Source: an uncultured virus (IMG/VR IMGVR_UViG_3300025277_000015) (taxonomy: Duplodnaviria; Heunggongvirae; Uroviricota; Caudoviricetes). From it: a stretch of 64,000 bases of DNA. Positions 9,724 to 44,677 of the stretch are shown piece by piece. The DNA is taken from the IMG/VR virus record IMGVR_UViG_3300025277_000015; one strand, given 5' to 3'. The first letter of the stretch is position 1. Each line of letters starts with the position of its first letter. A program made the translations under genes and the position numbers. The notes beneath the pieces were generated by a model that saw nothing but the letters and a program-made list of their open reading frames with translations, was not told the origin of the DNA and made no database searches.

Positions 9724-12700
9724 ATGCCATTATATTCTATAGAAGGCCCAGGCGGTAAAACTTATGAAATAGAAGGCCCAGAAAACGCGACGCGAGATCA
9801 GGTCATACAGGCTATACAAGCTAAGTTAACACCCGAACAGCCGTCAGCAGAAGATGCACTAGAAGATTATTTACAGGCTAGGGCAGATGCAGAGAATGCT
9901 AAACGTACTGCTCTTGGACGTGGGTTTCGTCGTAGTGTAGACTTAACTGGAGAAGGTATAGGCTCTGCTTTAGAGGGGGTAGGTAGTGTTTTAGGACTTG
10001 AGGGTCTTGAAGAATATGGCGCTGAAATGGCGTTAGAGAACGAGGCTCAACTACAACGTGCAGAAGCATCAGCTACAAGACGGCAAGACGTAGAGGGTCT
10101 TGGTACAGGGTTAAGTTACTTTGGAGAAACTTTAGCAGAGTCTTCAGTTCCTATGGGTGTTGGTATTGGCACAGGTGCGCTTACGGGAGCACTTGTTGGA
10201 GGAGGTATACCTGGAGCTCTTATTGGCGCAGGAGCAGCGGCACTATCACAACTACCTTTATTTTATGGTTGGAACCGTCAACGACAGAAAGAAGCAATAG
10301 AACAAGGAATTAAGACAGAAGTAAGCGAAGGTGCAGCGTTTTTATCTGCAATACCACAAGCAGCGGCAGAAGGTATTGTTGACCGTTTGTTAGTTGGAGG
10401 ATTTTTTGCGACGCCGTTAATGAAACAAGGGGGCGTGCTTACAAGAATAGGTAAAGGGTCAGTCAGAGGTGCAGCGGCTGAAGTACCTACTGAGATAGGA
10501 CAACAAGTTATTGAGCGTGCCCAAGCAGGATTATCGTTGACTAGCGATGAGGCTATTAGTGAGTATATAGACGCAGGTGTAGCAGCAGGTATGATCGGTA
10601 GCACTGTGGGTGCAGCAGGTAATATACGAGCAACTACACCAGAAATGCGAGAAGAAGCTCGAAGAACAGCAGCTCAAGAAAAAATCGCAAGGCTAGAAAC
10701 TGAAGTTGAACCAGACCCAACAGATGAAATATTAGCTATACAAGGGCCGCCAGAAATGCAAGGCCCTCCAGATAGACCTACAGCTTTACCAGCGCCAGGC
10801 ACTCCTGCTGTTATACGCGTTGATACAGAGGGTAAAGCAAAAACAAGCGAAGAGTTATCTGTTGAACGTGATGAAGGCATAAAAATTGCAGAGCGTGCAA
10901 GGCAAGAAATACGTAGGACTGGCGAAGTATCATCTAAAACTATGCAGGATTTACGTAACGCTAACATACCTCTTGAGTCTGTAAGTAAGGTACTAGAACA
11001 AACAAGAATGGAGCCTAGTTTAGCTAAACCTTTAAAAGGAGAAGCCGATGCAGATATTGGAGAGCCTATCACAACAGGAAGTAGAGCTAGCGTTCAAGAT
11101 GTTATATCAACGAGAGACGATAAGGATGCCAAGGAGCCTGATGCACCTGAAGAGGCAAGAGTGGACAGCCCTGAGCCTAGCGTTAGACCTGCTGTTGATA
11201 CAGAAGTCACTGGAGACGATACATTAGAGGTTACACCGAAAGAAGGTGAAGCAGCCGTAGATTTTCTCGCAAGAAAAAGAGAAGCAGAAAAAACAAAAAC
11301 TCCAGTTGAAGAAGAGCCTATATTTAAAGATGAAACAGTAACTAGTCTTTCAGCGTTGACTCGTAATCAACAGGCTAATCTTGATGTAGTAGCAAGAAAA
11401 CTTGAAGCAGGTGAAATAAGTAGAGCTGAAGCAAATCAAAGAGCGGTAGACATTAAAACAGGCAGAGTCCCAGCTCAAGTTCAAACCGCTAGAGAATTAA
11501 AAACTGAAGAAGTTCAAGCAGCAGAGATTAAAAGAGATGAAGCTCAGTTAGCTGAAATAGCTGTAGGAGAACAGGCAGGGCTCGACGCTTCGGCAAGGAA
11601 AGACGTTGAAAAACAAGCATCTTTAGAGAGTATAAACGCAACTAAAGCAGCGTTTGATAAACAAGATAAACGAGGGCGAAGAACTAGATTACAGAGATAC
11701 GAAGAAGAGTTTTCTACTGTAGCCACAGACCCATATGATAGAGGGACTAAAGGCGGTGCGTTAGATTCTTCAGACTTAAAAAAAGTACAAGACCTTGTAA
11801 CAGGTGCTACTTTACCTAAATCTAATCCGTTGTTTAAAGTACAAGAGCGGTTACGAAAAGCTCCTTATCCTGCAGATGTGTTGCTAGATGACGCACCACA
11901 TGAAATATCGGCAAAGGTAAAAAGAACACAGAAATCTTCTACTAAAGATCCAAAAACAGGTAAAGAAACTGTAACCGAGTTAGATGCCGCGCTTAATGAA
12001 AGAATGCAGAACTCAGTTGAAGCATCAGCGCTTTCCATAGAAAAATGGGTTAACGAGAATTTATCTGAAAAAGCTAAAGAAAAATTTGCAGCTCAAAAAA
12101 GAGAAGAAGTAAGAACTCTTAAAGCACAAGCAGATTATATAAAAAGACGAAAAACAAGCGAAGACCAGGTAATTATAAACGATAATAACATTAACATTGA
12201 GAATGAAAGAGCTAAGTTTGAAGCGGGTGAGATAACTGAGGCGCAACTTAATAAAAATATAGACCGTATTAGAGAAAAATCTGCGTTGAAAAAATTACCT
12301 TTAGATTCGGTATCAAACTTAGATACTCCTATGCACCCCGTGGTTGTAGAAATGTTAGCCGCAGGTAATCTTGAAGCTGCACTTAAAGGACTATCGATCA
12401 CGAGCCAAAGTAAACGCGTCAGTGCATTAGCGAAAGTACTTGCTAACAACATAGGAACTACAAAACTTGAAATAGTAGAAGATTTAGATTCTGCAGGTGT
12501 ATTTGATCCTAGAACAAACACTATAAGTTTAAATTCAACAGAGGGTTTAAACACGCACACGTTACTACATGAGATGATACATGCGGTTGTATCTGCCAAG
12601 TTAAGCGACAAATCTAACCCCACAACAGCACAGCTTAACACGTTATTTAAAAAGGTTAAGGGTTTAATCCCAACTGCTCGTGGCAGTACCAACTTAGATG

Positions 12701-15700
12701 AGTTTGTTTCTGAAGCTATGAGCAACCCAGAGTTTCAATCAACACTGGCATCAATAAATATTCAAGGTGAACCCGTAAGTGTATACCGTAGATTTATGAA
12801 TATAATAGCGAACTTTGGGCGTAAGTTAGTAGGAGCGCCTACAGTATCACTAACTTACATACCTAACATAAATGACTCTCTTAAAGGTTTAGATGTGTTT
12901 TCTGCAATAGATACGTTAGTACAAGGTGATAACTTGTTTGACGCTCTTATAGCTCCTGCACCTGAGTATAGAAACGCAGACATGTTACTACTAAACGCAA
13001 CTGCGGGCGGTGTAAACGAGATGGCAAAAGCGTTTGGTACTATACAGAAAAAAATTAACAGCTACGACGGTGTAAAGAGTTTTGGGAATAGTATGTTTGA
13101 CATTCTAAAAAACTTAAGAAAAAGTCCTAGAGTAGGTATTTTAAAGATATTAGGTACACAAGCTTTGGCAGACGTAGCAGAAAAAGCTGGGTTTGGTAAA
13201 CTAGCTGAAAATCTACACATAGCAATAGAAGAACAACGTGGAGCTATGATGGAGTCCGATGCGGCACTAGATGTAGTGATGCGCGATCTCGCTAACTTTA
13301 GGAAAGATAACCCTAAACTTAAAGTGGTTATGGATAAACTTATTTATGATGCAGATTATGGTAGTACCATAAATCAAGTAGACCCACTTCTTTCACAGGC
13401 TGATGCTGAAGCACAATATCTTAGGTATAAATTTGAATATTTAAACGACAAGGGAGACTTAAAAACTAAGTCATTTAAAACTAAAAAAGATAGAGATGCC
13501 GAGTATAAAAAATTTACAGACCCTAAGTATGAGGCAGAAAAACTTAATCCTGAATCTGAAAAGATGGATATATGGAAATTACAACAAAAAGAATTAAATA
13601 AACTTAACCCTGCGGATAGAAAAAAACTGTTAGCTCAGTACACCGCATTACGTAATACGTATAGAAACATGTACGAGAAGTTAAAAGACGTACTCTTTGG
13701 TCGTGTAGACGCCGCGTTAGCAGAAGATCCTGACGCTGCTAAAAAGTTAAAAAGTAGTGTGTTTAAAAAAATATTTAGAGCAAACACTTTAGCTGTGTAT
13801 TTTCCGCTTACGCGTGAAGGTAACTTTAAACTAACCTATGCATACAAAAGCGTAGATGAAGCGCCAGAGTCTGAAGCTAACCCGTCTTACGTAGTACGCA
13901 TGTTTAAGAGCGAAACAGAAAGAGATAGAGCGGCGGCAGAAATAAGAAAAGATAATAAGTTTGAAAGAGTTGAAACTAGCGACGGTGATTTTAAAGAAGC
14001 GCATTTTGAGAACGCTCCCTCATTCTCATTCGTAGGTAAAACATTAGACGCGTTAAAAAAAGGAGATGTTAAGGAAGATGTAAGAACAGAAATTGTTCAG
14101 TTGTTTATTGATACTTTACCTGAAACTTCTTTTGCTAAATCATTTAAAAAACGTGAAAATATTGAAGGGTTTATAGAAGATTCTTTAGATGCTTTCCGTA
14201 TAAAAGCTTATGACTTAGGGCGTCAAACTGAACGTCTAGTTCATGGTAAACGTATTAAAGATATAGAACAACAAATAAGCGGTTTAAAAGTACCTGATCC
14301 TGCAGCGATGAAAGCCGAGAGCATTGTAGGTAGAGGCACTGAGGCCATCACCGCATCATTTGCCGACCTAAAAAAGGAGTTGCTGCAGAGAGGGGGTTTT
14401 GCACGTAACCCTCCTAGCGAACCTCTTATGAAAAAAGCTAATCAGTTTGCGTTTATATACACCATTGGGTTTAACGTATCCTCTGCCATAGTTAACACAT
14501 CTCAAGTACCGTTGTTTGTGCTCCCATATCTCGGCGCTAAGTACGGATACCAACAGAGCGCATCTGACCTTACAAATGCAGGTAGGCTTGTTGGAGGAGC
14601 AAAAAATAATATACTAGCGATGTACGATAGAAATGAACAAGGTGATTACGTAGTAAAAAGTGATATACCTAAAAACCTTAAAGCAGAATACGAGCTTATG
14701 AAACCCGCCGTGCAGATGGCAGCGAAGCGTGGTCTACTAACAACATCATTCTTAAAGGATGCTTTAGGTCTTGATGAGTCAGGCAGGAAACGTACCATTG
14801 GAGATAGTATTTCTTCCATGTCGGCTTTTTTCTTTAACCACGCAGAACGTTTTAACCGCCAAACTACAATACTTGGGGGGTATAATTTAGAGCTTGAGAA
14901 GTTGATGGGTAAATATAAACCCAACGATAAACAAAGTAGAACTGAGTATCTTCTAGGCGCTACAACAGAACAGAAAACAGCCGCCGCTAAAGAGGCAATA
15001 CGCCAAGCACAAGAAACCAACGGTGGAGCAGTGTTAGAAACAGCCCCCGCCCTTACACAAAAAGGTATTGGTAGAGTTGCGTTTATGTATAAGAGCTACG
15101 GACTTCAGATGTATTACACTATGTTGAAGTCTGCAAAAACTATGATGGACTCTGACATGAACGCTGAACAGCGTAAGATCGCGGCTAAACAATTAGCAGG
15201 TGTTCATGGCACAGCGTTATTCTTTGCAGGTGTTCATGGTGTACCGCTCTACGGTGCGTTTAGTGTACTTTACAATTTACTTATCGCAGGTGAAGACGAT
15301 GATGATTTTGATACTGTTGTACGCAAAACAATAGGAGAGGGTTGGTATAAAGGTGTACCTGCTATGTCAGGCATTGACCCATCTAACCGTATAAGATTAA
15401 CAGGTCTATTATTACAAGAAAACAAGTTTGACAGAAACGCTGACTTAGAAGGTTTAATAGGGTTTCATCTTGGTGGCCCATTCTTAAGCAGTGCGAAGAG
15501 GATACAACGGGGTGCAAAAGATTTATATAACGGGGAATTAATGCGTGGTACAGAAAGTCTTCTACCTGCAGGTGTGGCAAATATGATGAAAGCGTTTCCA
15601 TTTATAGGCCGCATAGATGCAGAAGGTGGTTACAAAACCAGACGTGGCGATATTATCTACGATGATGTAAACGTGCTCGAACGTGCAGGACAGTTCCTTG

Positions 15701-16044
15701 GTTTTGCTCCTACGGGGTATATGTTAGAGCAAGAGCGAAACAATATTATCAAGGGTATAGACACCGCCATAAGTAAAAAACGTTCTAAGTTATTAAAACA
15801 ATACTACGTTGCTAAACGTATGGGTGACTTTGACGGCGCACGAGACGTAAGAAAAGAAATGCGTGCGTTTAGTAAGAAGCACAAAGAGGCCGCAATTACT
15901 GCCGAAACTATTGACCGTTCTATGAAGCAACACGCAAAAACATCTTTAGAGATGTACAACGGCATTCGTTTAAACCCACAAATGCGAGAGACTTTGAAAG
16001 ACAGTCGTAACGATTGGGATCGGGGTTTACGGTTGTTTGATTAA
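9724..16044 (+). CDS. Large polyvalent-type internal virion protein with a zincin-like metallopeptidase motif and a PLxRFG-like domain (2106 aa)
   Basis: LLHEMIHAV (HExxH at 12568-12582) followed by DEFVSEAMSNPEFQ. YFPLTREG at 13798-13821. Confidence 0.7.
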   Translation: MPLYSIEGPGGKTYEIEGPENATRDQVIQAIQAKLTPEQPSAEDALEDYLQARADAENAKRTALGRGFRRSVDLTGEGIGSALEGVGSVLGLEGLEEYGAEMALENEAQLQRAEASATRRQDVEGLGTGLSYFGETLAESSVPMGVGIGTGALTGALVGGGIPGALIGAGAAALSQLPLFYGWNRQRQKEAIEQGIKTEVSEGAAFLSAIPQAAAEGIVDRLLVGGFFATPLMKQGGVLTRIGKGSVRGAAAEVPTEIGQQVIERAQAGLSLTSDEAISEYIDAGVAAGMIGSTVGAAGNIRATTPEMREEARRTAAQEKIARLETEVEPDPTDEILAIQGPPEMQGPPDRPTALPAPGTPAVIRVDTEGKAKTSEELSVERDEGIKIAERARQEIRRTGEVSSKTMQDLRNANIPLESVSKVLEQTRMEPSLAKPLKGEADADIGEPITTGSRASVQDVISTRDDKDAKEPDAPEEARVDSPEPSVRPAVDTEVTGDDTLEVTPKEGEAAVDFLARKREAEKTKTPVEEEPIFKDETVTSLSALTRNQQANLDVVARKLEAGEISRAEANQRAVDIKTGRVPAQVQTARELKTEEVQAAEIKRDEAQLAEIAVGEQAGLDASARKDVEKQASLESINATKAAFDKQDKRGRRTRLQRYEEEFSTVATDPYDRGTKGGALDSSDLKKVQDLVTGATLPKSNPLFKVQERLRKAPYPADVLLDDAPHEISAKVKRTQKSSTKDPKTGKETVTELDAALNERMQNSVEASALSIEKWVNENLSEKAKEKFAAQKREEVRTLKAQADYIKRRKTSEDQVIINDNNINIENERAKFEAGEITEAQLNKNIDRIREKSALKKLPLDSVSNLDTPMHPVVVEMLAAGNLEAALKGLSITSQSKRVSALAKVLANNIGTTKLEIVEDLDSAGVFDPRTNTISLNSTEGLNTHTLLHEMIHAVVSAKLSDKSNPTTAQLNTLFKKVKGLIPTARGSTNLDEFVSEAMSNPEFQSTLASINIQGEPVSVYRRFMNIIANFGRKLVGAPTVSLTYIPNINDSLKGLDVFSAIDTLVQGDNLFDALIAPAPEYRNADMLLLNATAGGVNEMAKAFGTIQKKINSYDGVKSFGNSMFDILKNLRKSPRVGILKILGTQALADVAEKAGFGKLAENLHIAIEEQRGAMMESDAALDVVMRDLANFRKDNPKLKVVMDKLIYDADYGSTINQVDPLLSQADAEAQYLRYKFEYLNDKGDLKTKSFKTKKDRDAEYKKFTDPKYEAEKLNPESEKMDIWKLQQKELNKLNPADRKKLLAQYTALRNTYRNMYEKLKDVLFGRVDAALAEDPDAAKKLKSSVFKKIFRANTLAVYFPLTREGNFKLTYAYKSVDEAPESEANPSYVVRMFKSETERDRAAAEIRKDNKFERVETSDGDFKEAHFENAPSFSFVGKTLDALKKGDVKEDVRTEIVQLFIDTLPETSFAKSFKKRENIEGFIEDSLDAFRIKAYDLGRQTERLVHGKRIKDIEQQISGLKVPDPAAMKAESIVGRGTEAITASFADLKKELLQRGGFARNPPSEPLMKKANQFAFIYTIGFNVSSAIVNTSQVPLFVLPYLGAKYGYQQSASDLTNAGRLVGGAKNNILAMYDRNEQGDYVVKSDIPKNLKAEYELMKPAVQMAAKRGLLTTSFLKDALGLDESGRKRTIGDSISSMSAFFFNHAERFNRQTTILGGYNLELEKLMGKYKPNDKQSRTEYLLGATTEQKTAAAKEAIRQAQETNGGAVLETAPALTQKGIGRVAFMYKSYGLQMYYTMLKSAKTMMDSDMNAEQRKIAAKQLAGVHGTALFFAGVHGVPLYGAFSVLYNLLIAGEDDDDFDTVVRKTIGEGWYKGVPAMSGIDPSNRIRLTGLLLQENKFDRNADLEGLIGFHLGGPFLSSAKRIQRGAKDLYNGELMRGTESLLPAGVANMMKAFPFIGRIDAEGGYKTRRGDIIYDDVNVLERAGQFLGFAPTGYMLEQERNNIIKGIDTAISKKRSKLLKQYYVAKRMGDFDGARDVRKEMRAFSKKHKEAAITAETIDRSMKQHAKTSLEMYNGIRLNPQMRETLKDSRNDWDRGLRLFD

Positions 16045-26676: not shown

Positions 26677-26759
26677 GTTTTTACCTCCAAAAAAACTGGT
26701 TTCACATAGGAGAATGTGGACACCCCCCTATGTTTAATCCCTAGCCATTGGCTAGCATG

Positions 26760-27032
26760 TTAATCTAAATAAAAGGTGTCAGCACCTACAAAGTTAGTCT
26801 TTCGCATACCAACACCTTTAATTTTCCTCCCACGCTCTACCATCATTAACACAGACACGCGGCCTTTGATAAACTCAGGTAGTGCATCCCAATGGTCATA
26901 GCTATCTTCTAATGCATTGTCAACACAATTCATACCAATACATCGTACTCTGATATTATTTGTATCAGGATCTGCCCACACTTGGTATAACGTGTCAGAG
27001 GGAATATCAGATTGAGACATAGTACATACCAT
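26760..27032 (-). CDS. Hypothetical protein (about 86-90 aa)
   Basis: ORF in the early operon; the start is probably the ATG at 27020. Confidence 0.65.
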   Translation of the reverse strand: MVCTMSQSDIPSDTLYQVWADPDTNNIRVRCIGMNCVDNALEDSYDHWDALPEFIKGRVSVLMMVERGRKIKGVGMRKTNFVGADTFYLD

Positions 27033-27870
27033 CTCCCAACGCGTAGCCTACATCCTCAACATACTGATCTTGTGATAAGATGTTTACAACAGATAGCTTA
27101 CCTGCCAGCTCCTGGGGAATCGTATCGTCGGTGTAGGTCTTTAAGCCCTCTGCGTTGAACATCGACCTGTCTCGTAAATAATGTTTGTTAGCGTTATCTA
27201 TCGGCAATACATCAAAGTGTTGCGTACCGAACTTCTCATAAACCTTGACAAGACACAGATTTAACATCTTGGCTTCGGATATTTTATGCTCCTGTTGAGA
27301 CGTTATGAAGTCTTTGACTTGTTGCCCAAACGCGGGGTCTATGAACACATGCCCAGAGTTGGATAGGTGTTCCATCTCACGATACATAGCTTCGCTTGTA
27401 AACAATTTATCTTTAATATCCTTCGCGTTCTTACGTACCTTATCACGTGCCGAACCAAATTGTAGCTTCACGTTGTGTACTGTTTCCACCGCTATGTCAA
27501 TCATATCAAAGTTCTGAAGATACCGCTTCGCATTCTTCACACCGTCTTTCAAATGTATAGACATTGCCATATGACGTTGGTGACTGTAGGTTGAATACTT
27601 CATATTCCGTATCTTATGAGAATACACAACGTAGTTACTGTCTCCCTTACCACTTTCGCGGAAGTCACCAAAGGCAATATACCCCATGCAAAAGGGGTGA
27701 CCTTCCATGTACACATATGCTTGGTACGTATTTTTGTATTCAAACTGTAGACCACGCATCTCTTTACTCAGTTGAAATACAAACTCTTGTATCTCAGGCA
27801 TGATATCAGAGTGTCCTCCTCTATATCCTTTACCTTTAATATCGCTCACGCGTTTTGCTTCATAGTTCAT
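27007..27870 (-). CDS. Hypothetical early protein (287 aa)
   Basis: GAGGAG RBS and long ORF. Confidence 0.8.
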   Translation of the reverse strand: MNYEAKRVSDIKGKGYRGGHSDIMPEIQEFVFQLSKEMRGLQFEYKNTYQAYVYMEGHPFCMGYIAFGDFRESGKGDSNYVVYSHKIRNMKYSTYSHQRHMAMSIHLKDGVKNAKRYLQNFDMIDIAVETVHNVKLQFGSARDKVRKNAKDIKDKLFTSEAMYREMEHLSNSGHVFIDPAFGQQVKDFITSQQEHKISEAKMLNLCLVKVYEKFGTQHFDVLPIDNANKHYLRDRSMFNAEGLKTYTDDTIPQELAGKLSVVNILSQDQYVEDVGYALGDGMYYVSI

Positions 27871-28145
27871 TTTGTTTTCTCCTCTTCTCTATCTTGGTTA
27901 AAACATTTTTTACACAACAATCCTTCTTCGTGGGATTTTAAGTCTTCAGGATAATCCCAACCACACCAAGAACATTCTTTATGCTCATCATAATAAAAGA
28001 TTATGCTAGGCATTTTATCTCCTAGTTTTTTGTCCTTGATCTCAAGTAACTCATCGGCAGAGAGGGTGTCAGCAAATGCCCAATTAGTATGCCCATATTC
28101 GCTATTGCAAATATCATCTATTTGCTCTGTTATATCTCTACTCAT
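27867..28145 (-). CDS. Hypothetical protein with C-terminal CxxC pairs (92 aa)
   Basis: GGAGG RBS, CSWC and CKKC. Confidence 0.7.
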   Translation of the reverse strand: MSRDITEQIDDICNSEYGHTNWAFADTLSADELLEIKDKKLGDKMPSIIFYYDEHKECSWCGWDYPEDLKSHEEGLLCKKCFNQDREEEKTK

Positions 28146-28441
28146 TTTGTTTCCTCCTTGTTATAAAATTCATCATAGGCTTCATAGAAATCAGATTTAT
28201 ACCAACTCCAATCGTCGTAAAAATAGCGTACTTCGCCTTGTCTCCAAACTCCCCATTTGCCTATAAAAGAAAGCCAATTATTTTCAAAATCATCTGGGTC
28301 ATTTCCAAAATCATCATCACCAATTTCGATTGACCCGATACCTTCTTTATAAAAATCCTGATAAGCAAGTGTATCCACTATCTTGTTTGCAAGTTTTATT
28401 GCGTTAACTCGATCAAACACTCTTTTTATATCTTCACTCAT
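28142..28441 (-). CDS. Acidic, aromatic-rich hypothetical protein (99 aa)
   Basis: GGAG RBS and ATGA overlap with the next gene. Confidence 0.7.
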   Translation of the reverse strand: MSEDIKRVFDRVNAIKLANKIVDTLAYQDFYKEGIGSIEIGDDDFGNDPDDFENNWLSFIGKWGVWRQGEVRYFYDDWSWYKSDFYEAYDEFYNKEETK

Positions 28442-29444
28442 TTTGTTTCTCCTTGATTATAATTTCAGCCGACCCTTCTATTGTAGATACGAGTTGACAG
28501 TATTTATTGATGAAGTCGTTGTACCTCGCCCGTAGCGTCGGCAAGTCCACATCACCTCCTAACTTGTTTTCTATATTATCACGTTCACTCCACAGTTGAC
28601 GGTCACGTAAGTACTGCCACACCTCATATTGAAACAGACTTGTTACATGCCTGTGCCACTCTGGATCACATATAACATCAGAAAGATTTTGGTTATGAAG
28701 GGTGTACCAATTTGAATGGCCGCAATGTACCTTAATTTCTTCTTGCATCTTATTGAAGTAATCAAAGTCAGTGCTTGGCAAGATATTGTACATACTCACT
28801 ACATACTCTAGTAGCTTATCACTGTATGGTTTGATCTCTGCTTTACGCTTCTTGTCCACACGCTTCTTGGGGTGCACATACTTATACGTGTCACCACGTA
28901 CACGCCATAGATGCGTGTTCACCTCTCGCTCGAACTCAAGTGGATAGTCACCCTTGGGTAGAAAGTAATCGCGGTCTTTCTGATATTTCTTCCCATCGCC
29001 ATGCTCTATACCAACGTACTGTTTGCCGTTGTCACTGTAGAACACCATGTTACTCGGCAACGCGTTCTCTAGCATAGTGTAGCGTATTGTATGTGCACTG
29101 TTATCTAGTCCGTTGCGTATGCGTATCCGCTCCCTCGTTCCATCGTATGTCCAAAGTATCGGCGCGAACTCCTGTTCTTGTTTGATGTCCGAAGGTTTTA
29201 AGGTGCGCCTGTCATACCACTGTCGTGTATGCTCACCCAGACCATCGTAGTCACCGCCGTCCATCAGACCGTAGCAATTATATGAGAACTTCTTTATACG
29301 TTCCCACTTACGGTTGCGCGGGCCGAGTGGCCTTATGTCATCTGATAGCGAGTGCTTCTTACTCACCATCGGCTTGGTTGTGTTGTACATTTCCTCCACT
29401 CTGTGAAACGTATCCAGATTTGTTTTGTAGTGTCTATATGACAT
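28434..29444 (-). CDS. Hypothetical early protein (336 aa)
   Basis: Long ORF preceded by a palindrome and RBS. Confidence 0.8.
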   Translation of the reverse strand: MSYRHYKTNLDTFHRVEEMYNTTKPMVSKKHSLSDDIRPLGPRNRKWERIKKFSYNCYGLMDGGDYDGLGEHTRQWYDRRTLKPSDIKQEQEFAPILWTYDGTRERIRIRNGLDNSAHTIRYTMLENALPSNMVFYSDNGKQYVGIEHGDGKKYQKDRDYFLPKGDYPLEFEREVNTHLWRVRGDTYKYVHPKKRVDKKRKAEIKPYSDKLLEYVVSMYNILPSTDFDYFNKMQEEIKVHCGHSNWYTLHNQNLSDVICDPEWHRHVTSLFQYEVWQYLRDRQLWSERDNIENKLGGDVDLPTLRARYNDFINKYCQLVSTIEGSAEIIIKEKQNE

Positions 29445-29477
29445 TTTGTTTTTCCTCTCTAGCCAGTGGCTACTTGT

Positions 29478-29774
29478 TTATAATATGTTAAATTTGCTTT
29501 CGTTAGTTATATGGCCTTTAATGAGTTCATATGTATGCTTGTCGATCTCGGTTCGTAGTCCTAGATAGTAACGATCACCCGAAGCATTGGTGTAACACTG
29601 TTCTTCGTCACTCCATTTTGCAGTGCTATTATCAACAGGATCACACCTATCACGCACAATTTCATGGTGTGCATCAAGATCATCTCTTTCGGTTATAAAC
29701 GTAACGGTGTTTACACTGTACATATTACCTGTATCATCAGAGTAATAGCCGATATCTGCTAAGTAATATCTCAT
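29478..29774 (-). CDS. Hypothetical protein (98 aa)
   Basis: AGGAG RBS. Confidence 0.7.
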   Translation of the reverse strand: MRYYLADIGYYSDDTGNMYSVNTVTFITERDDLDAHHEIVRDRCDPVDNSTAKWSDEEQCYTNASGDRYYLGLRTEIDKHTYELIKGHITNESKFNIL

Positions 29775-29784
29775 CTTCTCCTCC

Positions 29785-31020
29785 TTACATATTGTTTGAT
29801 TTGACGTGGACTACTTTACCCACGCTTGGTTTCGCGGTCTTATTATCTAAGACTGTCCACAGTACAGGGCATGTCCACTGACCCCAACCACCGTACAGGT
29901 AACCATCTGTTAACACGATAACGGCTTGTGGTTTAATGCCATGCTCGGCCATATACTCTGGCACACACTCTACATTCGTACCACCGCCACCTCTCGGCTT
30001 GGTTGACTTGACCAACGTATCCAGTTCATGTGTCTCGTACTTCTCATCACGACACACCTCGGTATCCCAATACAACACGCGTACACATGACGGCTTGACC
30101 GTATCACAGATAGACTTGATCTCAGACAAGAACACCGACAATTCATTCCTGCCAATCGAGCCTGATGTATCAATAGCTAATACCAGTTCCTCGACCTTCT
30201 CAGAGATACCGCTTGGCATATAGATATCCATACCAATGTATCTGCGGTTGGGCTTGTTCCACGTAGAGTAGTCACTCCCTGCACATGTAGACGAGATGAA
30301 CTCACGCAACACCTCACGCCAGTTGACTTGGGGTTCAAGTAGCTCACCCAGATCACGCGCACCCTTGTTGCCTAGCTTCCCTGCAACCATGTCACCTTGG
30401 CGTATCGCTTCGTCGATCTCACGTTCGAGTTCTTGCTTCTCGCCCTCGGTCATCTCCTTCGCACCCTCGAAGTCATGGTCATCGAACGGCTCACCGATAG
30501 CGGTGTTTTGTTCACCTGTGGTACTTGAATCACCTCCGCCATTAACGTCGCCATCACCTGATGACGTGTTACCTTGTTTCTTCTCATACAGTAGCTTGAA
30601 CACTTCCTCGGTATTCATACCCCGATACTTCTCATCGAGACACCCACCATCGATCCACTCCACGAACCCATTCTTGTTCTCGTCCATGATCTGTATGTTG
30701 ATAACATAGTCCATTGCCATGTTTGTCAGTTCAGGATCTAGCTTGGCCAGATGTTGGTAGTTGTGAATGTGTCTGTACATCTTGTGTCCTACTTCGTGCA
30801 GTACAAGAAAGCGCAGTTGCGGATCGGTCAACCCTGCAACAAACTCACGACCATAGTACTCATCTCTACCGTTGGTGTAGGCAGTTGGTACATCATCTTT
30901 GATGCCCCTCTCACCCACCATCAACACACCAGACAACGCGGCGTAGTCATCGTTGCCCATGATAGAGACAACGGCCTTGGATAGGCGTTGCTCCTCAGTT
31001 AGATTATTTAACATTAACAT
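29785..31020 (-). CDS. DUF2201-type metallopeptidase plus vWA-like domain protein
   Basis: LVLHEVGH (HExxH), MIDAS DTSGS, GGGGT and LTDG. Confidence 0.88.
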   Translation of the reverse strand: MLMLNNLTEEQRLSKAVVSIMGNDDYAALSGVLMVGERGIKDDVPTAYTNGRDEYYGREFVAGLTDPQLRFLVLHEVGHKMYRHIHNYQHLAKLDPELTNMAMDYVINIQIMDENKNGFVEWIDGGCLDEKYRGMNTEEVFKLLYEKKQGNTSSGDGDVNGGGDSSTTGEQNTAIGEPFDDHDFEGAKEMTEGEKQELEREIDEAIRQGDMVAGKLGNKGARDLGELLEPQVNWREVLREFISSTCAGSDYSTWNKPNRRYIGMDIYMPSGISEKVEELVLAIDTSGSIGRNELSVFLSEIKSICDTVKPSCVRVLYWDTEVCRDEKYETHELDTLVKSTKPRGGGGTNVECVPEYMAEHGIKPQAVIVLTDGYLYGGWGQWTCPVLWTVLDNKTAKPSVGKVVHVKSNNM

Positions 31021-31048
31021 TTTGTTTTCCTCTCTAGCCAGTGGCTAA

Positions 31049-31147
31049 TTAAAATGGTGGTTCATCGTCGGGTTCTTCGGGCAACCATACGATATCGTAT
31101 TGAAACATCGCCCAAAGAAACTCACGTAGATTTCTACCATATAACAC
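31049..31147 (-). CDS. Very small acidic protein (about 32 aa, ends EPDDEPPF)
   Basis: GTG start just after the ATPase stop; it fills the gap up to the palindrome. Confidence 0.4.
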   Translation of the reverse strand: MLYGRNLREFLWAMFQYDIVWLPEEPDDEPPF

Positions 31148-31148
31148 C

Positions 31149-32243
31149 TTACTTCTTATCAGCAGTGAACATATACGTGTTGTCCTTCGCCCACTCAGTG
31201 AACTTGGCGTTAGACATAACCACGTCGATCCTACTGTACTTCGGGTTCCTCGCACCATTGACGAACATACCTTGGGCTTCTTTGTTTAGCCTTGGCATGT
31301 AGTCCATCCACGCGTTGATCCAGTCTTTCTCCATCGATGCCAATGATCTGTACACAACCATACACGTGGCACTCGCACTGTCTGGAACCCTCGCGTTCTT
31401 GGGATCATTCTTGATACTGTCGAGTGACGGTAATTGATCCGCTAGTTTGACAAAGGCCATCATGTCCATCGCACCTTGCTCACCGATAGTACCCATGAGT
31501 AAACTTGTTAGGGTGTGATCATCTATCGACCCTCGTGCGTGCAGTAAGTCGGACGCCATATGTAGGGAACGTGGTGTCGTAAAGGCCGTGCGTTGTAGTT
31601 GTGGGTGATAGATGTATGGGTTCTCAGTTGGGTCTTTGACATCTTCGAATGTCTGCAATACCGCAGGGAAGTCTTTGACAAACCCCAATACCGATGGGTG
31701 TACATCGTTGTTGATACCCCACTCGATCCACTCAAGGTGGTCAGGTTTACGTATCTTAACAGTTGCTACACGATCACGTTGATGTGGTAACAACATATCA
31801 CCAACGCCCTCTGCTCCAAGGTTCGTCGTGGCAAACACGATGCTTCCCTCTGGTAGTTCATAGCTACCAATCTTGCGCTCTAGTATAATACGCAGTAGTG
31901 CGTTCTTCACCGCAGGGTTAGCTTTACCGAACTCGTCAATCATCAGTATGATAGGTTTGTTCAAGTGTACGCCAAGTTCTTCATTGGTTGCATAGGTCAC
32001 ATAGTTCTGACCATCTAACTGTGCCATCTTCGGTATCATAATGTCACCGAGATCCTTGGTGGTACAGTCGAAGTAACAGGGCGTATGGTTTGGTAGTCGC
32101 TCTGCTAGTGTCGTAAGCATCGACGATTTACCGATACCCATGTGACCTTGAGCAAGTATGGTTCGCTTGTCACCATATGCCACGATTGCATCTACGCATT
32201 GGTCAAGTGACACCGCGTACATTTGTGTTGCTGAATTATTCAT
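31149..32243 (-). CDS. MoxR-like AAA+ ATPase
   Basis: Walker A GHMGIGKS, Walker B LMIDE, ATTN sensor 1, TPRS sensor 2. Confidence 0.9.
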   Translation of the reverse strand: MNNSATQMYAVSLDQCVDAIVAYGDKRTILAQGHMGIGKSSMLTTLAERLPNHTPCYFDCTTKDLGDIMIPKMAQLDGQNYVTYATNEELGVHLNKPIILMIDEFGKANPAVKNALLRIILERKIGSYELPEGSIVFATTNLGAEGVGDMLLPHQRDRVATVKIRKPDHLEWIEWGINNDVHPSVLGFVKDFPAVLQTFEDVKDPTENPYIYHPQLQRTAFTTPRSLHMASDLLHARGSIDDHTLTSLLMGTIGEQGAMDMMAFVKLADQLPSLDSIKNDPKNARVPDSASATCMVVYRSLASMEKDWINAWMDYMPRLNKEAQGMFVNGARNPKYSRIDVVMSNAKFTEWAKDNTYMFTADKK

Positions 32244-32410
32244 TTGTTTTCCTCCTCATTAATTAAATTCCATAGTTCTTCTGCGAACTCTTTGCGACCT
32301 TCAAGTATCCCATCGTCAAAGCTATCCACATCTCCTATGTCATTTTCGTATTTGGAATATGCTTGGAGTTCACCTTCTATGGCATTGTTTATTTTCTCTA
32401 TTAGTTTCAT
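32240..32410 (-). CDS. Small acidic protein (56 aa; not in the ORF track)
   Basis: MKLIEKINNAIEGEL...NEEENK. Palindrome and RBS upstream, ATGA overlap with the ATPase. Confidence 0.7.
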   Translation of the reverse strand: MKLIEKINNAIEGELQAYSKYENDIGDVDSFDDGILEGRKEFAEELWNLINEEENK

Positions 32411-32445
32411 TTTGTTTTCCTCTTTGTTGTTAGCCAGTGGCTAGA

Positions 32446-33324
32446 TTAAATACCGATTGTTGGTAATGATTTAAGAATGTCGTCCACGTTCTTCTTGGTT
32501 TGAGCGCGGAAGTGTGCGTCTTCACGTAGTGCATCAGGTGTAACACCTTGGAACACATACTCTAGTTGTTGACGTATCTTCTCCTTCTCAGGATTATTAT
32601 CGAGATTGAAGTCGGCAAGCATATCAATGAGCATCGTCGCATTGGATACGAGCGTGTCACGGAATATGTTTTTCTTCTCGCCATCATTGAAGTCGATAGT
32701 CCTGGACATCTTTGTGAGTGACTCATGTAAACGTGTCCACACATCATTCATAGATTTCTGGAACATACCATTGTAGCTTGCTTCGCAGTCTTCTTGAACT
32801 TGCTTGAGTGCTTCGGCAGGTAGATCGACACGTATGTCACCTGCATCTGGACATGGGAACGTGTATATATTCCACGCGAACTTGAGCTTAAGTTCATCTA
32901 ATGTTGGATAGTCACTCGCATTGAATAGGTCACCGAGTTTAGCCTTTGCTTGCTCTACTTGGAACTCATACTCCGTAAAGAACTTCTCACACAAACTATC
33001 AAACTCATTCTTCATGTCTGACATTGTGTTGGTGTAGTCGAAGTATCGCTTGGTTGGTATCAGGCGTTGACCACCATCGCTCCAAGGTGTCGTCATACTC
33101 ACGTGCAAGTTACGTGCATTGCCCACGTGTCTACCAATAGCTTGGAAGATATCGCTATCACCAAGAAGAGATTTGTAAACATCTGCAACACCGCTCTTGG
33201 CATTGTTTGTGTTAACAACTTCTTGTGAAGCTTTCTTGTCTTTCTTCCTAAGCGTTGCTTGTGATATGCGTAGGTCAACCAGTAGTGCTGACGACGCAAG
33301 GGTTGGGGTTGATATTGTATTCAT
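32446..33324 (-). CDS. DUF3150-like protein (292 aa)
   Basis: TTPWSDGGQRLIP...LGDLFNASDYPTLDELKLKFAW pattern recognised by eye, next to the AAA/vWA genes. Confidence 0.6.
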   Translation of the reverse strand: MNTISTPTLASSALLVDLRISQATLRKKDKKASQEVVNTNNAKSGVADVYKSLLGDSDIFQAIGRHVGNARNLHVSMTTPWSDGGQRLIPTKRYFDYTNTMSDMKNEFDSLCEKFFTEYEFQVEQAKAKLGDLFNASDYPTLDELKLKFAWNIYTFPCPDAGDIRVDLPAEALKQVQEDCEASYNGMFQKSMNDVWTRLHESLTKMSRTIDFNDGEKKNIFRDTLVSNATMLIDMLADFNLDNNPEKEKIRQQLEYVFQGVTPDALREDAHFRAQTKKNVDDILKSLPTIGI

Positions 33325-33458
33325 TGGTCTTCTCCTAAATATGATTGCATACTTTTTTCTGGTACGTTTTGAAGCAACTCTTCGATAGCGGTCATGTCAC
33401 CCATGCCCACATCTTCTTTGATTTGATCTATTACTTGATCGATAATTTCTTTACTCAT
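33321..33458 (-). CDS. Small acidic protein (45 aa; not in the ORF track)
   Basis: MSKEIIDQVIDQIKEDV..., GGAGGAG RBS, ATGA overlap. Confidence 0.6.
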   Translation of the reverse strand: MSKEIIDQVIDQIKEDVGMGDMTAIEELLQNVPEKSMQSYLGEDQ

Positions 33459-33621
33459 CTTCTCCTCCTCTGTTCCAATACTCATGGTTTGGATGTTGCA
33501 TTATAAACTCTTTACGTAGGCGGTCATGTTCTCGTCTGGTTCTGACCACCTTGGTTAACACGTATGGCACGTAAACAAGTAGTGCCCCCACGTACATTGA
33601 TATTAGTATTTCAAATGTCAT
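33451..33621 (-). CDS. Small single-pass membrane protein (56 aa; not in the ORF track)
   Basis: MTFEILISMYVGALLVYVPYVLTKVV hydrophobic N-terminus. Palindrome and RBS upstream. Confidence 0.6.
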   Translation of the reverse strand: MTFEILISMYVGALLVYVPYVLTKVVRTRREHDRLRKEFIMQHPNHEYWNRGGEDE

Positions 33622-33635
33622 TCTGTTTCTCCTCT

Positions 33636-33839
33636 CTAGCCAGTGGCTAATGATTTTTGGTTAAGGTGTTTTAGTTCTTCGACATTGGTGATACGCGTGT
33701 AACCTTGTTTAGGTAAGGGTACGACAGTCCAGCCGAGTCGGACTTGGGTCGCGTCTTGCTCACCACAATCGAGACAGGTCGTATAACCTAACATGGCTCG
33801 ATCTACTGAGAATTGATTGTCACATTTCTTACATTGCAT
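33636..33839 (-). CDS. C4 zinc-finger protein (DksA/TraR-finger-like spacing)
   Basis: CKKC...R...CLDC; first gene after a strong promoter. Confidence 0.65.
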   Translation of the reverse strand: MQCKKCDNQFSVDRAMLGYTTCLDCGEQDATQVRLGWTVVPLPKQGYTRITNVEELKHLNQKSLATG

Positions 33840-33938
33840 TTGTTTCTCCGTTTGTTGCTAGCCAGTGGCTAGGGGTTGTATGACGTGTTACTGTGTGTTG
33901 CGTCATAGTAAATAATTTTTTTTCTTGAACATACTTGC

Positions 33939-33967
33939 AGTATAACACAAGTATCGGGAAATGTCAA
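33939..33967 (-). promoter_or_regulatory. Near-consensus sigma70 promoter of the early operon
   Basis: TTGACA-17 nt-TATACT with an extended -10 TG. Confidence 0.85.
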
Positions 33968-34024
33968 ACAATGTGGTTACTTATTGTTTTCACTTATTTG
34001 GTGTTAAATGGTGGTGTTTGGTGT

Positions 34025-34397
34025 AATGTCCTGCAATGTTCCATAATGTTCCAAAGTGGTGGTCTGGAAGTGCTTGAAAAGATTGGAATGTTCCAAAGTT
34101 CCTTTTAGGTCAAAATTGGACGGTCTTGAGATGTGCGGATTTTAGAATGGAACAAATGGACTCGCGCAAAGGCGGATCTTACAGGCGGATAGTAATTTTT
34201 TACTTTTGGAACATTATAAAAATATATATATATATAGACCTTTTTACTACTACTACACATTACTGCTAGCCACTGGCTACCACCATTTACCACGAAAACA
34301 TAATGTACCTTTTTCGTAAATATTTTGGAACATTATGGAACATTACACCCCTTTTTTGGAACATTGCAATAATATCAATAACTTACGTTGGAACATT
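34025..34397. repeat. Inverted 9-bp iteron array around an AT-rich core (candidate replication origin)
   Basis: AATGTTCCA at 34035, 34045, 34087. Its reverse complement TGGAACATT at 34207, 34326, 34336, 34357, 34389. (AT)n run at about 34222-34236. Confidence 0.75.
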
Positions 34398-34502
34398 CGC
34401 TCGACGCTCCGCAGTCACTGGTATCTTTTCTAGCCATTGGCTAACGTGTTATAGTGCGAGGCTCGGTGCGTCTGAGTCACTGGTATCTTAAAAATTTGGC
34501 AC

Positions 34503-34530
34503 AAAAAAAAGGGGAGCAATTAAGCTCCCC
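34503..34530 (-). terminator. Rho-independent terminator after the 179-aa gene
   Basis: Minus strand GGGGAGC-TTAATT-GCTCCCC followed by T8. Confidence 0.88.
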
Positions 34531-34537
34531 AATAGTT

Positions 34538-35077
34538 TTATTTGATTGCTTTGAGCAATTCCAAAGTATTCTCTAATTGCTCTTGCTTGTCGAAGTCATC
34601 GACTTTTTCAATCTCTTTCTTGACTGCCGTCTTAAGCTTGGCAATCTCATCTTTAACACGTGTAAAGATATCACGAGGCGTATTTGCACCACCAGAGATT
34701 TGCTTGACCTTGCGGTTCTCGATGGCTTGTCCTAGCTTGTTAAGACCAGAGGTAATTTGGCCTTTCCAATGCGCTTGGTTCTTAGGTTTGCCACCTGTAG
34801 TAAAGTGACAGCCATTGTGATCTGGCGCCGTGTCATGGCCTTGTGCGTTCTTATTACTGATAAGCTTGATTGCTTCAGGTGTGAACCTAAGCGCAAATGC
34901 ATCGCGTAAAGCTTGTCGATCATCACCTTGAAGATCCTGCTCACGTGTCCAACCAATCTTTATCAATTGGTCAATCAACGTTGACGATCTTTTCTGGCTG
35001 GCCTTGTGGCCTTTACTATCTTCCCTCACAAGGTGAAGTGTTCGGTCGCATAGTACTACGTTTGTATTGTTTGGCAT
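34538..35077 (-). CDS. Hypothetical basic protein (179 aa), monocistronic
   Basis: AGGAGG RBS and its own terminator. Confidence 0.8.
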   Translation of the reverse strand: MPNNTNVVLCDRTLHLVREDSKGHKASQKRSSTLIDQLIKIGWTREQDLQGDDRQALRDAFALRFTPEAIKLISNKNAQGHDTAPDHNGCHFTTGGKPKNQAHWKGQITSGLNKLGQAIENRKVKQISGGANTPRDIFTRVKDEIAKLKTAVKKEIEKVDDFDKQEQLENTLELLKAIK

Positions 35078-35420
35078 AACTGCCTCCTATAAATATGCTA
35101 GCCATTGGCTAGCGGTTACATCGTCTCAAGGTTTCCCTTGCCGATAATTATTTATAACACGTGATAACGTGTTACCCTATGATATAGCGGAGTTAGCCAT
35201 TGGCTAGACCATACCCGCCCCCCATGCCCCACTTTTGCCAGACTAGTTACATACATGTATATGTATTACTATTTTCCACAAATAATTACCGAAATTTTGA
35301 GTTTGGCGACCCCACACCCCCCTTATATAGGAAGACCCCCCTATAGGAGTCCCAAAATCCTTTACAAAAAAATTTTTTATATTATAACATGTTTATCGGC
35401 TAACAACCTGCGATATAGAA

Positions 35421-43690: not shown

Positions 43691-43771
43691 ACACGGGTTC
43701 GTGTATAATACAAAAATTACCTTGACAGTTGCATCGGGCGACTGACACTAGCCAAGACAAGGAGATTTTAC

Positions 43772-44677
43772 ATGGCTAATACAACATTTAACGGTTCCGT
43801 CCGTTCTGAAAACGGTTTCAAGCAAGTAACAAAAAGTTCTACTTTAGGTACTTTTACAGATAATTTTACTGTTAATTCTAGCGGCGCTGTCTACGGAACA
43901 GCAGGCGCACATTTTAAATACACTGCAGCAGCAGGCTACGGCCCAGCCGACCTTGTTGTAGGTAAAGGTGGTTCAATAGGGGGTACAGTAAACCCTTATG
44001 CAGAAAGTTCTACAGCGCTGTTCCAAACAGGTACAAAACTATTTTACGGTAATAACATCTACCGATATGGTCAATGTGGCGGTACAGCGGTTACTGCAGG
44101 TAAACTTGTTCAACACGCAGCAATAGACTCCAACCACGCGAACATGACCGCAACTGCGGCTGTATCTGCAGGTGAGACTGATATCTCAGTTGAAACAGGT
44201 GGTAACGACATGACTCTTAACGAGTATGCAAATGGTTATCTCTGGGTAAATGACGTGAATGGTGAAGGCCAAACAATGCGGGTTAAATCTAATCCAGCTC
44301 ACGATCACTCAGCAGATCCTAGTGTTGTCATTACTACATATGATGCTTTAGCAACTGCACTGACTACAAGTTCGCAACTTTCAATAATTCACGATCCGTA
44401 CACAGGTTTGATCGTAGCTCCTGCTACAGAGACAGGCTGCGTTATGGGTGCAACAGTTATTGATATGACCGCAGACTACTATGGTTGGTTTACAGTATCA
44501 GGCCCACAAGCTTTGTTAACTGTTGGCACAGTCGTTGTTGGTAACATCGCAGTTCGTTCAGGCGGCACTGCTGGAGGCGTTGCTCCTGCTACTGATAATG
44601 TTCTTACCGAGATTGGGGAAGTGATGGCAGTGAGCGCTAACACAGAATACTCTCTTGTTTGGATGAACATACAATAA
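43772..44677 (+). CDS. Putative head fibre/decoration protein (301 aa)
   Basis: MANTTFNGSVRSENGF N-terminus, Gly/Thr/Ala-rich beta content. Confidence 0.55.
   Translation: MANTTFNGSVRSENGFKQVTKSSTLGTFTDNFTVNSSGAVYGTAGAHFKYTAAAGYGPADLVVGKGGSIGGTVNPYAESSTALFQTGTKLFYGNNIYRYGQCGGTAVTAGKLVQHAAIDSNHANMTATAAVSAGETDISVETGGNDMTLNEYANGYLWVNDVNGEGQTMRVKSNPAHDHSADPSVVITTYDALATALTTSSQLSIIHDPYTGLIVAPATETGCVMGATVIDMTADYYGWFTVSGPQALLTVGTVVVGNIAVRSGGTAGGVAPATDNVLTEIGEVMAVSANTEYSLVWMNIQ

Follow-up and report, generated by a model that had tools for sequence, protein, structure and literature searches.

Among described systems, those closest to the repeated element examined here are the stoperator and immunity repressor systems of Cluster A mycobacteriophages, such as L5 (gp71) and Bxb1 (PMC6550527, PMC9283540). 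Cluster A genomes have 20 to 30 repressor sites each, most of which block elongation, and the motifs co-vary with the repressor; the phages are temperate, and their sites lack symmetry, point in the direction of transcription, and are occupied by a two-domain repressor monomer (PMC6550527). Cluster K phages carry start-associated sequences (SAS), asymmetric 13-mers that lie at the ribosome-binding site directly ahead of the start codon in some of their genes, and extended SAS (ESAS), imperfect 17-mer inverted repeats with a 4- to 13-bp spacer, for which function is given as unknown (PMC3203893). The element described here is a 13-bp palindrome, TAGCCANTGGCTA, that occurs 10 times in a 64,000-nucleotide stretch of DNA (the window) from an uncultured tailed phage (IMG/VR record IMGVR_UViG_3300025277_000015). 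With moderate confidence, the 10 palindromes are regarded as double-stranded DNA operators for a 179-aa protein that the phage itself encodes and that would act as a homodimer. That protein is the likely reader because the palindrome differs in relatives whenever the version of the protein differs.

Other systems offer partial parallels. The temperate Streptomyces phage phiC31 encodes a repressor, c, that binds conserved inverted repeats (CIR) of ~17 bp in intergenic positions of the early region, and one CIR copy autoregulates the repressor's own gene. We know of no set of many alternative specificities for the CIR. On plasmid RK2, the ParB-family dimeric global regulator KorB acts at about a dozen dispersed 13-bp palindromic (6-N-6) OB operators and also controls its own operon. 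Lambdoid phages, which are temperate, have heteroimmune repressor-operator and N-nut cassettes, the sites of which cluster at two promoters or two nut sites.

Compared with the stoperators, the locus is alike in having many copies of one 13-bp-scale site, mostly in short operon gaps rather than at promoters, with a motif that co-varies with a phage-encoded protein and for which a block of elongation is proposed. It differs in that the sites are perfect 6-N-6 palindromes confined to 8.5 kb, whereas stoperators are asymmetric and genome-wide, and in that the candidate reader is a predicted dimer of an unrelated all-helical family in a phage for which no integrase was recognized among the open reading frames (ORFs) scanned against Pfam or PHROGs. 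Like the CIR, the palindromes are conserved inverted repeats in early intergenic places, including the candidate regulator's own upstream region, but 0 of 132 members of the 179-aa family match Phage_Repressor_c (PF25746) at an E value of ≤0.05. By analogy, the palindrome system may work as the stoperators and the phiC31 repeats do, but its symmetry and its protein family place it outside both groups. Dispersed 13-bp 6-N-6 palindromes and a dimeric regulator (here predicted) are shared with KorB and OB, but no ParB family was matched, the setting is a phage rather than a plasmid, and KorB has no hypervariable series of specificities. As in the lambdoid cassettes, a regulator gene is replaced or diverged between similar phages and the sites change to match, but the sites here are spread through the operon and the protein families differ. 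Unlike N4-type promoters (5- to 7-bp stem, 3-nt loop), in which pairing counts for more than symmetry about the dyad, the palindromes have conserved complementary bases next to the dyad, and some types have centers of 0 to 2 nt. Placement near start codons, conserved gene by gene among relatives, recalls SAS and ESAS, but 6 of the 10 copies lie upstream of the Shine-Dalgarno sequence rather than on it and 4 are not start associated; neither a cognate protein nor type switching is described in the passages considered on Cluster K (PMC3203893).

Ten copies of the palindrome in the early region

An exact scan of the whole window found 10 copies of TAGCCANTGGCTA, all within 26742-35206 (starts at 26742, 29460, 31035, 32431, 33637, 33859, 34267, 34431, 35099, and 35194; designated S10 to S1 in that order), and 0 elsewhere in the window, compared with a mean of 0.01 and a maximum of 1 in 100 dinucleotide-preserving shuffles. 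When up to 2 mismatches were allowed, 13 sites were found versus 2.9 expected; the extra three, at 25757 (2 mismatches), 42735 (2 mismatches), and 48418 (1 mismatch), were unrelated to the ten. Bases 1-243 of the window recur at 63758-64000 with 99.2% identity; the window therefore represents a complete phage genome of ~63.76 kb, and the absence of further exact copies holds for the entire phage. The palindrome is confined to 8.5 kb of this ~63.8-kb genome.

On the plus strand, five copies have G as the central base, one has C, and four have T, and the palindrome extends beyond 13 bp in three copies (17 bp at 35099 and 15 bp at 33859 and 26742). Read on the minus strand, 6 of the 10 copies end 14 to 21 nt before an ATG, directly upstream of a GAGG-type Shine-Dalgarno sequence (21 nt for the copy at 35099, 19 for 33859, 15 for 33637, 20 for 32431, 14 for 31035, and 15 for 29460). 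The other four copies have no adjoining start codon, and genes with overlapping start and stop codons are without a copy. A preliminary description of the sequence had reported 10 exact copies at these coordinates and none elsewhere, a central base that tracks position, extension of three copies to 15 to 17 bp, and a placement relative to starts, stops, a strong promoter, a candidate origin, and the 179-aa gene. The exact scan and shuffles confirmed the copies; the extensions and, on the plus strand, the central-base pattern were likewise found, and all of the positional statements hold on the minus-strand reading.

Palindrome types among related phages

Searches with the DUF2201 protein encoded in the early region as a query recovered 23 related viral loci. 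In 12 of these, where the DUF2201 protein is ≥87% identical, the exact motif is kept in 2 to 10 copies, depending on locus length; it is absent from all of the other 11, where the protein is ≤75% identical. Six of those 11 loci (L020 to L024 and L027) have other perfect palindromes at the same syntenic places: GGTTAGTC-NNN-GACTAACC in L020 and L021, GGTTAGTG-NNN-CACTAACC in L024 and L027, GTTAGTG-NNN-CACTAAC in L023, and GATAAGT-NNNN-ACTTATC in L022. Use of the TerS-like gene as an anchor added 80 loci and gave 52 early regions of ≥1.1 kb. One palindrome is repeated 2 to 12 times in 47 of these 52, and the remaining five are short (1.1 to 1.9 kb). The early regions comprised 14 palindrome types, with GTTAGGG (L193), GTACGTCA (L234), and GTTATGGG (L219) among the further ones, and a 15th type, CGTCTAA-NN-TTAGACG, was found in L248, a 55-kb contig from a metagenome-assembled genome (MAG). 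Many of the loci are redundant strains of one phage, so that independent lineages are fewer than loci, and most related loci are short fragments. Four RNA-library runs gave fragmentary contigs of related strains, without starts, ends, or strand, and so yielded no information on transcription.

The arms of the palindrome are identical within each genome, and the center is variable. In whole contigs G002 to G005, in which gene order is conserved throughout, the palindrome of the contig's own type is its most repeated palindrome and is kept within ~9 kb of the early region. All types share one layout. A leader site precedes the first early-strand gene, one to three sites stand among origin-like repeats between that gene's terminator and the early promoter, another lies past the early promoter, and others occupy gaps ahead of the same conserved genes; the last site is followed by a strong hairpin, the element A(A/T)ACCAGT, and a T run.

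Co-variation of palindrome type with the 179-aa gene

At the position of the 179-aa gene, the encoded protein is 229 aa long in G004, 226 in G003, 278 in G002, and 224 in L023, and this is the one syntenic gene that is replaced or unrecognizable between types. In 50 loci, the positional gene formed 8 BLAST clusters, each with its own palindrome(s); TAGCCA was found in 11 of 11 cluster-1 loci. The identity of the positional protein was at most 42% (median, 0) in 872 pairs of loci with different palindromes versus a median of 66% (minimum, 31%) in 118 pairs with the same palindrome. Across different-palindrome pairs, the zinc-ribbon protein reached 83% identity, the 292-aa protein 93%, and the AAA ATPase 99% (between two GTTAGTG flank subtypes) or 92% (TTAGGGA versus GGTTAGTG). 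Most genes are 75 to 99% identical between G004 and G002, the palindromes of which are unrelated; the positional proteins of these two genomes gave no match to each other, and their zinc-ribbon proteins are 42% identical. Mapped onto a positional-protein tree (26 loci, 10 labels), the palindrome types require 9 changes, the fewest possible; with shuffled labels, the mean was 17.7 changes and the lowest count was 15. In every type, the 179-aa gene and its homologues are flanked by palindrome copies.

Of three genes that had been put forward as possible partners of the motif, the 179-aa gene thus co-varies with it by clusters, pairwise identities, and tree. The other two, HTH_17 and HTH-DUF6378, are poor candidates because they are 80% and 90% identical, respectively, between G004 and G002 despite the unrelated palindromes. 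The accompanying statement that no recognizable cognate protein is encoded is correct as regards family searches, but a candidate cognate is encoded, namely, the 179-aa gene.

Sequence and predicted structure of the 179-aa family

The 179-aa family is hyperdivergent, basic (median pI, 9.4), and all-helical. A profile search of 1.84 billion representatives returned 359 proteins at an E value of ≤1e-3 and 158 at ≤1e-10; lengths among the 150 matches listed were 103 to 341 aa, most of them ~165 to 240 aa. Profile-profile comparison joined clusters into one family (probability, 85.6%; E value, 5.6e-6; 156 columns, end to end). Neither Pfam nor PHROG gave a match for 13 representatives or for 132 members, and language-model atlas leads to DUF3102 (0.79) and Phage_Repressor_c (0.78) were below noise and were not confirmed by Pfam scans of the 132 members. 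There was no PDB sequence match for the 179-aa protein, no BLAST match between it and the G004 positional proteins, none in a genome search of G002 to G005, and none when two family members were compared by tblastn with 50,697 phage records. A literature search found no description of this palindrome element or of the family.

A first structural model based on 17 close homologues had a predicted local distance difference test score (pLDDT) of 55; with a 132-row alignment, an all-helical model with a pLDDT of 90.4 and a predicted template modeling score (pTM) of 0.66 was obtained. Foldseek searches of the PDB with the model gave nothing at an E value of ≤1e-3, and the best BFVD match had an E value of 0.17. 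The sole match in a wide structural search was a generic helical hairpin covering residues 135 to 179 (Z, ~7), with residues 1 to 134 barely covered. Prediction with two copies gave a symmetric homodimer with a score of 0.75, compared with 0.00 for the best of three controls. Among solved structures, 20 of 30 homodimers and 1 of 23 monomers attain a score of 0.75; these counts hold only roughly because an alignment of our own was used. Three dimer runs share ≥86% of contacts, with a pLDDT of ≥81, and the 179-aa protein is predicted to pair as a symmetric homodimer. The best-conserved block (residues 97 to 122) lies outside the predicted dimer interface except for residue 122. Separately, the C-terminal 40 to 50 residues appear mosaic in alignment A1 of the 179-aa homologues: some homologues that are 55 to 65% identical overall (e.g., P0019) have a C terminus identical to that in the window, and closer ones carry another variant.

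A candidate operator system and its alternatives

In the explanation favored here, the 179-aa gene would form a unit of its own, with a weak promoter ahead and a terminator behind, upstream of the origin and the early promoter, and the 179-aa dimer would bind all 10 sites. S1 and S2 lie at the gene's own candidate promoter and leader, so that negative autoregulation would follow from binding there. S3 and S4 would bring the protein to the origin, and at S5 to S10, bound dimers would most likely be roadblocks by which early-block transcription is shut down or paced. Sites fill every real intergenic gap in the first 7 kb of the early operon, to the border of the replication genes, and would abut ribosome-binding sites because gaps of ~30 nt are the sole noncoding DNA available. 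Protein and sites would co-evolve, and the lineage would contain 15 or more operator specificities, every one matched to a particular version of the protein, like heteroimmune repressor-operator sets. Both DNA binding by the 179-aa protein and its repressive effect are inferred.

Several observations weigh against this explanation. Activation or replication control could equally be the effect of binding, and no palindrome copy overlaps the strong early promoter. In the searches made, no DNA-binding fold or family, such as a helix-turn-helix, ribbon-helix-helix, or ParB-type domain, was recognized in the 179-aa family. Family profile A4 misses the G002 and G004 positional proteins at an E value of ≤1e-3; the G004 protein is tied to the family solely through the G003 protein (30% identity; E value, 7e-10), and the G002 cluster was placed in it by gene position alone. 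Among the different-palindrome pairs, 38 of 872 have ≥31% identity and overlap the same-palindrome range. A tree of the backbone AAA protein requires 11 type changes versus 9 on the positional tree and is nearly as congruent; the tree contrast is modest, and the contrast in pairwise identity is the stronger result. S4 is altered at 6 of 13 bases in contigs of a related strain. Finally, in the six copies linked to ribosome-binding sites, the central base of the coding strand is always C and the ribosome-binding sequence is almost the same, which could point to a function in RNA.

Action in RNA is an alternative that we consider unlikely. The copies would act as UAGCC-ANU-GGCUA hairpins beside the Shine-Dalgarno sequence, bound by the 179-aa or another phage protein, in translation control, in cutting of the polycistronic mRNA into blocks, or in protection of mRNA ends. 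The six copies shortly before start codons are in the transcribed orientation of one operon, the copies split that operon into translationally uncoupled blocks, and the 28 palindromes of a distant relative, Rhizobium phage RHph_TM3_14A, often include the Shine-Dalgarno sequence and have the appearance of an RNA-level device. However, A6 and T8, beside the single central base, are invariant in the window's type although they are unable to pair in a hairpin because a 1-nt loop cannot form, and dyad-adjacent bases are also conserved in GTACGTCA-N-TGACGTAC and in types with 0 to 2 central bases, the spacer-less ones included. The RNA hairpins of the copies have little stability (-5 to -7.5 kcal/mol; z, -0.6 to -1.0) and are no better than those of shuffled sequences. 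Two of the four copies away from start codons, S3 and S4, lie between the terminator of the 179-aa gene and the early promoter, and the arms are constant around a variable center, whereas hairpin binders usually read the loop. Across all loci, 154 of 174 distinct sites are perfect and 20 have one mismatch; on the transcribed strand, these 20 comprise 4 G.U, 4 A.C, and 12 other nonpairs, without a wobble bias, and no Rfam 15 family reached its gathering score at any of the 10 sites. Recognition of duplex DNA by a 2-fold symmetric protein is favored over RNA hairpins because symmetry is kept up to the dyad, copies are present in the origin region, and wobble bias is absent. Precedents for a role in replication or genome handling rather than in transcription, an unlikely but live alternative, are the dyad-symmetric iterons of lambda O and the dispersed palindromes of ParB or KorB. 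The 179-aa protein would then be a type-specific origin-binding or organizing protein, and the operon copies would be secondary loading sites. The 179-aa gene adjoins the candidate origin, one to three copies stand among the origin repeats in every type, the region around the origin over which the sites are scattered spans ~8.5 kb, and the conserved A(A/T)ACCAGT element follows both S3 and S10. The origin has its own conserved ATGTTCCA repeats, however, which do not change with palindrome type; most copies lie far from the origin, in gaps of the operon where the gene boundaries are conserved, and the A(A/T)ACCAGT 8-mer is not enriched across the window (7 versus 5.4 expected).

It is improbable that another trans-acting factor reads the palindromes and that the 179-aa gene is a linked hypervariable gene, e.g., for antidefense or exclusion. 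The lack of a recognizable nucleic acid-binding fold in the 179-aa protein, for which binding is inferred, would suit such a factor, as would the divergence of the zinc-ribbon protein between G004 and G002 and the short contigs, which hide most of each genome. Against it, the zinc-ribbon, 292-aa, and AAA proteins are 83 to 99% identical across palindrome types, and the two helix-turn-helix proteins also remain similar between genomes with unrelated palindromes; the 179-aa gene is site flanked in every type, a predicted symmetric dimer matches a symmetric site, and type changes on its tree are the fewest possible. There is very little likelihood that the copies are recombination sites or homology patches for the gain and loss of small gene cassettes, as had been suggested. 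In comparisons of the window with same-type relatives, a 100-nt insert ends exactly at S8, a 98-aa gene ends 8 to 10 nt before S9, and a 56-aa gene begins ~25 nt after S7, but indels of a 54-aa gene and of a pair of 99-aa and 92-aa genes are not near any copy. Only two to three of six indels abut a copy, and these are explained equally well by the repeated ribosome-binding sequence, which flanks indels and supplies homology by itself; whole-gene indels fall at gene boundaries in any case, and the joint switch of all copies with one gene would be left unexplained. Least probable is the earlier analogy with the hairpin promoters of phage N4, read by a phage RNA polymerase, to which the short stem, the 3-nt center, and the position upstream of early genes correspond. 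No RNA polymerase was recognized among the ORFs scanned with Pfam or PHROGs, two giant proteins of the phage have no PDB sequence match and one of them resembles polyvalent proteins, and palindrome type follows the 179-aa protein rather than a polymerase. N4 hairpin promoters start transcription 11 nt from the loop center, and a start at that distance would cut into the Shine-Dalgarno sequence here. Of the forms that had been considered for a region-wide control system, a dimeric repressor or roadblock on DNA thus fits best, the RNA hairpin is weakened, and cassette recombination is little supported.

If the 179-aa family binds the palindromes, it would represent a new, unannotated fold family of sequence-specific nucleic acid-binding proteins, and the 15 operator specificities, already paired with their proteins in nature, could serve as orthogonal regulator-operator parts. 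Binding would also extend stoperator-like multisite control, combined with heteroimmune-style diversification, beyond temperate actinophages. In the present setting, uncultured marine phages with no integrase recognized among the ORFs scanned, one would then ask what causes specificities to turn over in lytic phages. One possible but doubtful answer is an immunity-like system in an abundant, apparently lytic marine phage lineage: at least 359 clusters (at 50% identity) of dimeric DNA binders, each paired with ~10 copies of its own palindrome in the early operon, would have been diversified by conflict among co-infecting kin and would provide superinfection immunity without lysogeny. If so, each phage would shut off the early genes of kin of the same type, and a large natural set of orthogonal regulator-operator pairs would be a by-product. 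For metagenomic genomes of this lineage, a sequence rule would also follow, in that the most repeated palindrome beside the terminase genes would locate the early region, the origin, and the regulator.

Site-by-site layout

S1 (35194..35206), an exact match that reads TAGCCAATGGCTA on the early (minus) strand, lies upstream of the 179-aa gene and overlaps the -35-like hexamer of that gene's weak candidate promoter (35206-35179, minus strand; TAGCCA-16-TATCAT, 9/12). S2 (35099..35111), the 17-bp palindrome, lies in the leader of the 179-aa gene, and an equivalent is present upstream of the homologous gene in all other palindrome types. The 179-aa gene, the candidate cognate regulator, occupies 34538..35077 on the minus strand, and an intrinsic-terminator-like hairpin followed by T8 (34511..34530, minus strand) marks the end of its transcript.

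S3 (34431..34443) is 68 nt past this terminator; its upstream edge is adjoined by TAACACGT, and direct repeats of AGATACCAGTGACT are present on both flanks. S4 (34267..34279) lies within the candidate replication origin (34036..34396), which contains a TA run together with eight ATGTTCCA repeats, three of them on the plus strand and five on the minus strand. There are 11 copies of ATGTTCCA in the window versus 2.0 expected, and the 8 in the candidate origin surround the TA run and S4 and resemble origin iterons. Similar repeats occur across palindrome types, and the element is therefore separate from the palindrome and is probably read by a conserved protein. As side observations, TAACACGT occurs 9 times in the window versus 2.9 expected, including an inverted repeat, TAACACGT-tatc-ACGTGTTA, between S1 and S2 (35155-35174), the copy at 34444-34451 that abuts S3, and one at 33883-33890 (12 nt upstream of S5). 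In L235 and L241, which are of another type, GTAACACGTTAC itself is the palindrome that is repeated.

The strong sigma-70-like early promoter (33939..33967, minus strand; TTGACA-17-TATACT with TG, 11/12) is followed by S5 (33859..33871), which lies ~68 nt downstream of the -10 hexamer, between the promoter and the zinc-ribbon gene, the first gene behind it. In G002, G003, and G004, the equivalent of S5 is inside a longer zinc-ribbon ORF. At 33840-33912 (minus strand), a short upstream ORF (ATGACG...) reads through S5, and its end overlaps the start of the zinc-ribbon gene (ATGcaATGTAA). In the same three genomes, the stretch matching 33840-33912 is fused in frame to give a zinc-ribbon protein of 85 to 95 aa, with the palindrome in coding sequence.

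S6 (33637..33649) overlaps by 2 nt the TAG stop codon of the 67-aa zinc-ribbon ORF. S7 (32431..32443) lies past the 292-aa gene and before the 56-aa gene, which is not present in relatives. S8 (31035..31047) precedes the DUF2201 metallopeptidase/VWA gene, and S9 (29460..29472) precedes a 336-aa gene. The last copy, S10 (26742..26754), is past the stop codon of a 90-aa gene and marks where the early block, with its sites, gives way to replication genes that have none. Directly after it, at 26695..26733 (minus strand), is a hairpin with a 13-bp stem (26733-26704), followed by AAACCAGT and T7; the hairpin region has a folding energy of -27.9 kcal/mol (z, -2.98). The same order of last palindrome copy, strong hairpin, A(A/T)ACCAGT, and T run was found in L018, L022, L024, L193, L218, L219, and L235, with hairpin, element, and T run directly ahead of the first gene of the replication module. 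This arrangement could be an early terminator, a middle-gene signal, or an origin element. An A(A/T)ACCAGT-like element, ATACCAGT, also follows the origin copy S3 (34417-34424 and 34479-34486).

Early genes at 26680-33840 (minus strand) have a near-identical ribosome-binding context, GAGG(A)AAAACAAAATG, with or without a preceding palindrome. Small genes that are absent from same-type relatives are flanked by this sequence, namely, those for 56 aa (32240-32410) and for 99 and 92 aa (27867-28441).

The phage genome and its distant relatives

The genes at 16.1 to 35.1 kb are on the minus strand of the phage genome. They encode a DUF927 primase-helicase, a Gp2.5-like single-stranded DNA-binding protein, an SNF2 helicase, a PD-(D/E)XK exonuclease, DNA polymerase A, the AAA ATPase, and the DUF2201 metallopeptidase/VWA protein. 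Plus-strand blocks encode terminase, portal, capsid, tail spike, endolysin, and two giant virion proteins. The larger giant protein (2,106 aa; 9724-16044, plus strand) resembles LPD-type "large polyvalent proteins" (atlas scores, 0.93 to 0.98) and has a DarB-like C-terminal part (phrog_10089; E value, 4e-44); the second (1,695 aa; 1410-6497, plus strand) has no informative match.

Even the closest isolates are only distantly related. Identity to the proteins of RHph_TM3_14A and Pseudomonas phage KPP25 is 36% for DNA polymerase A, identity to those of pelagiphages HTVC027P and HTVC023P is 46% for TerL, and there was no near-identical DNA among GenBank phages. Contig G001 represents the same phage as the window and is not independent of it. 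A TerL search of genome contigs found three MAG contigs of 3 to 55 kb, none evidently integrated, the bin labels of which are unreliable as indications of hosts. No enriched palindrome was found in KPP25 or HTVC027P, and the 179-aa family profile had no match in HTVC027P, KPP25, or RHph_TM3_14A.

In RHph_TM3_14A (L246; MN988472.1, 12000-60889), 28 copies of TTACC-N4-7-GGTAA are distributed genome-wide, compared with 0 in a reversed-sequence control. Many of these copies lie 2 to 4 nt before a start codon, with the Shine-Dalgarno sequence (GAGGT) as the 3' arm, and, judged by sequence, they would be hairpins between anti-Shine-Dalgarno and Shine-Dalgarno sequences. In L026, a relative with 41% identity, aacTTTTAAGGTTAAAAg(a)(a)ATG occurs four times (1111, 3225, 3541, and 5280), and the aacTTTTAAGGTTAAAAg palindrome is centered on the Shine-Dalgarno sequence itself. 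The sole Rfam match in the genome of the window is a Mu-gpT-DE RNA at 43720-43774 (plus strand; 61.2 bits versus a gathering score of 49), located just downstream of the major capsid gene.

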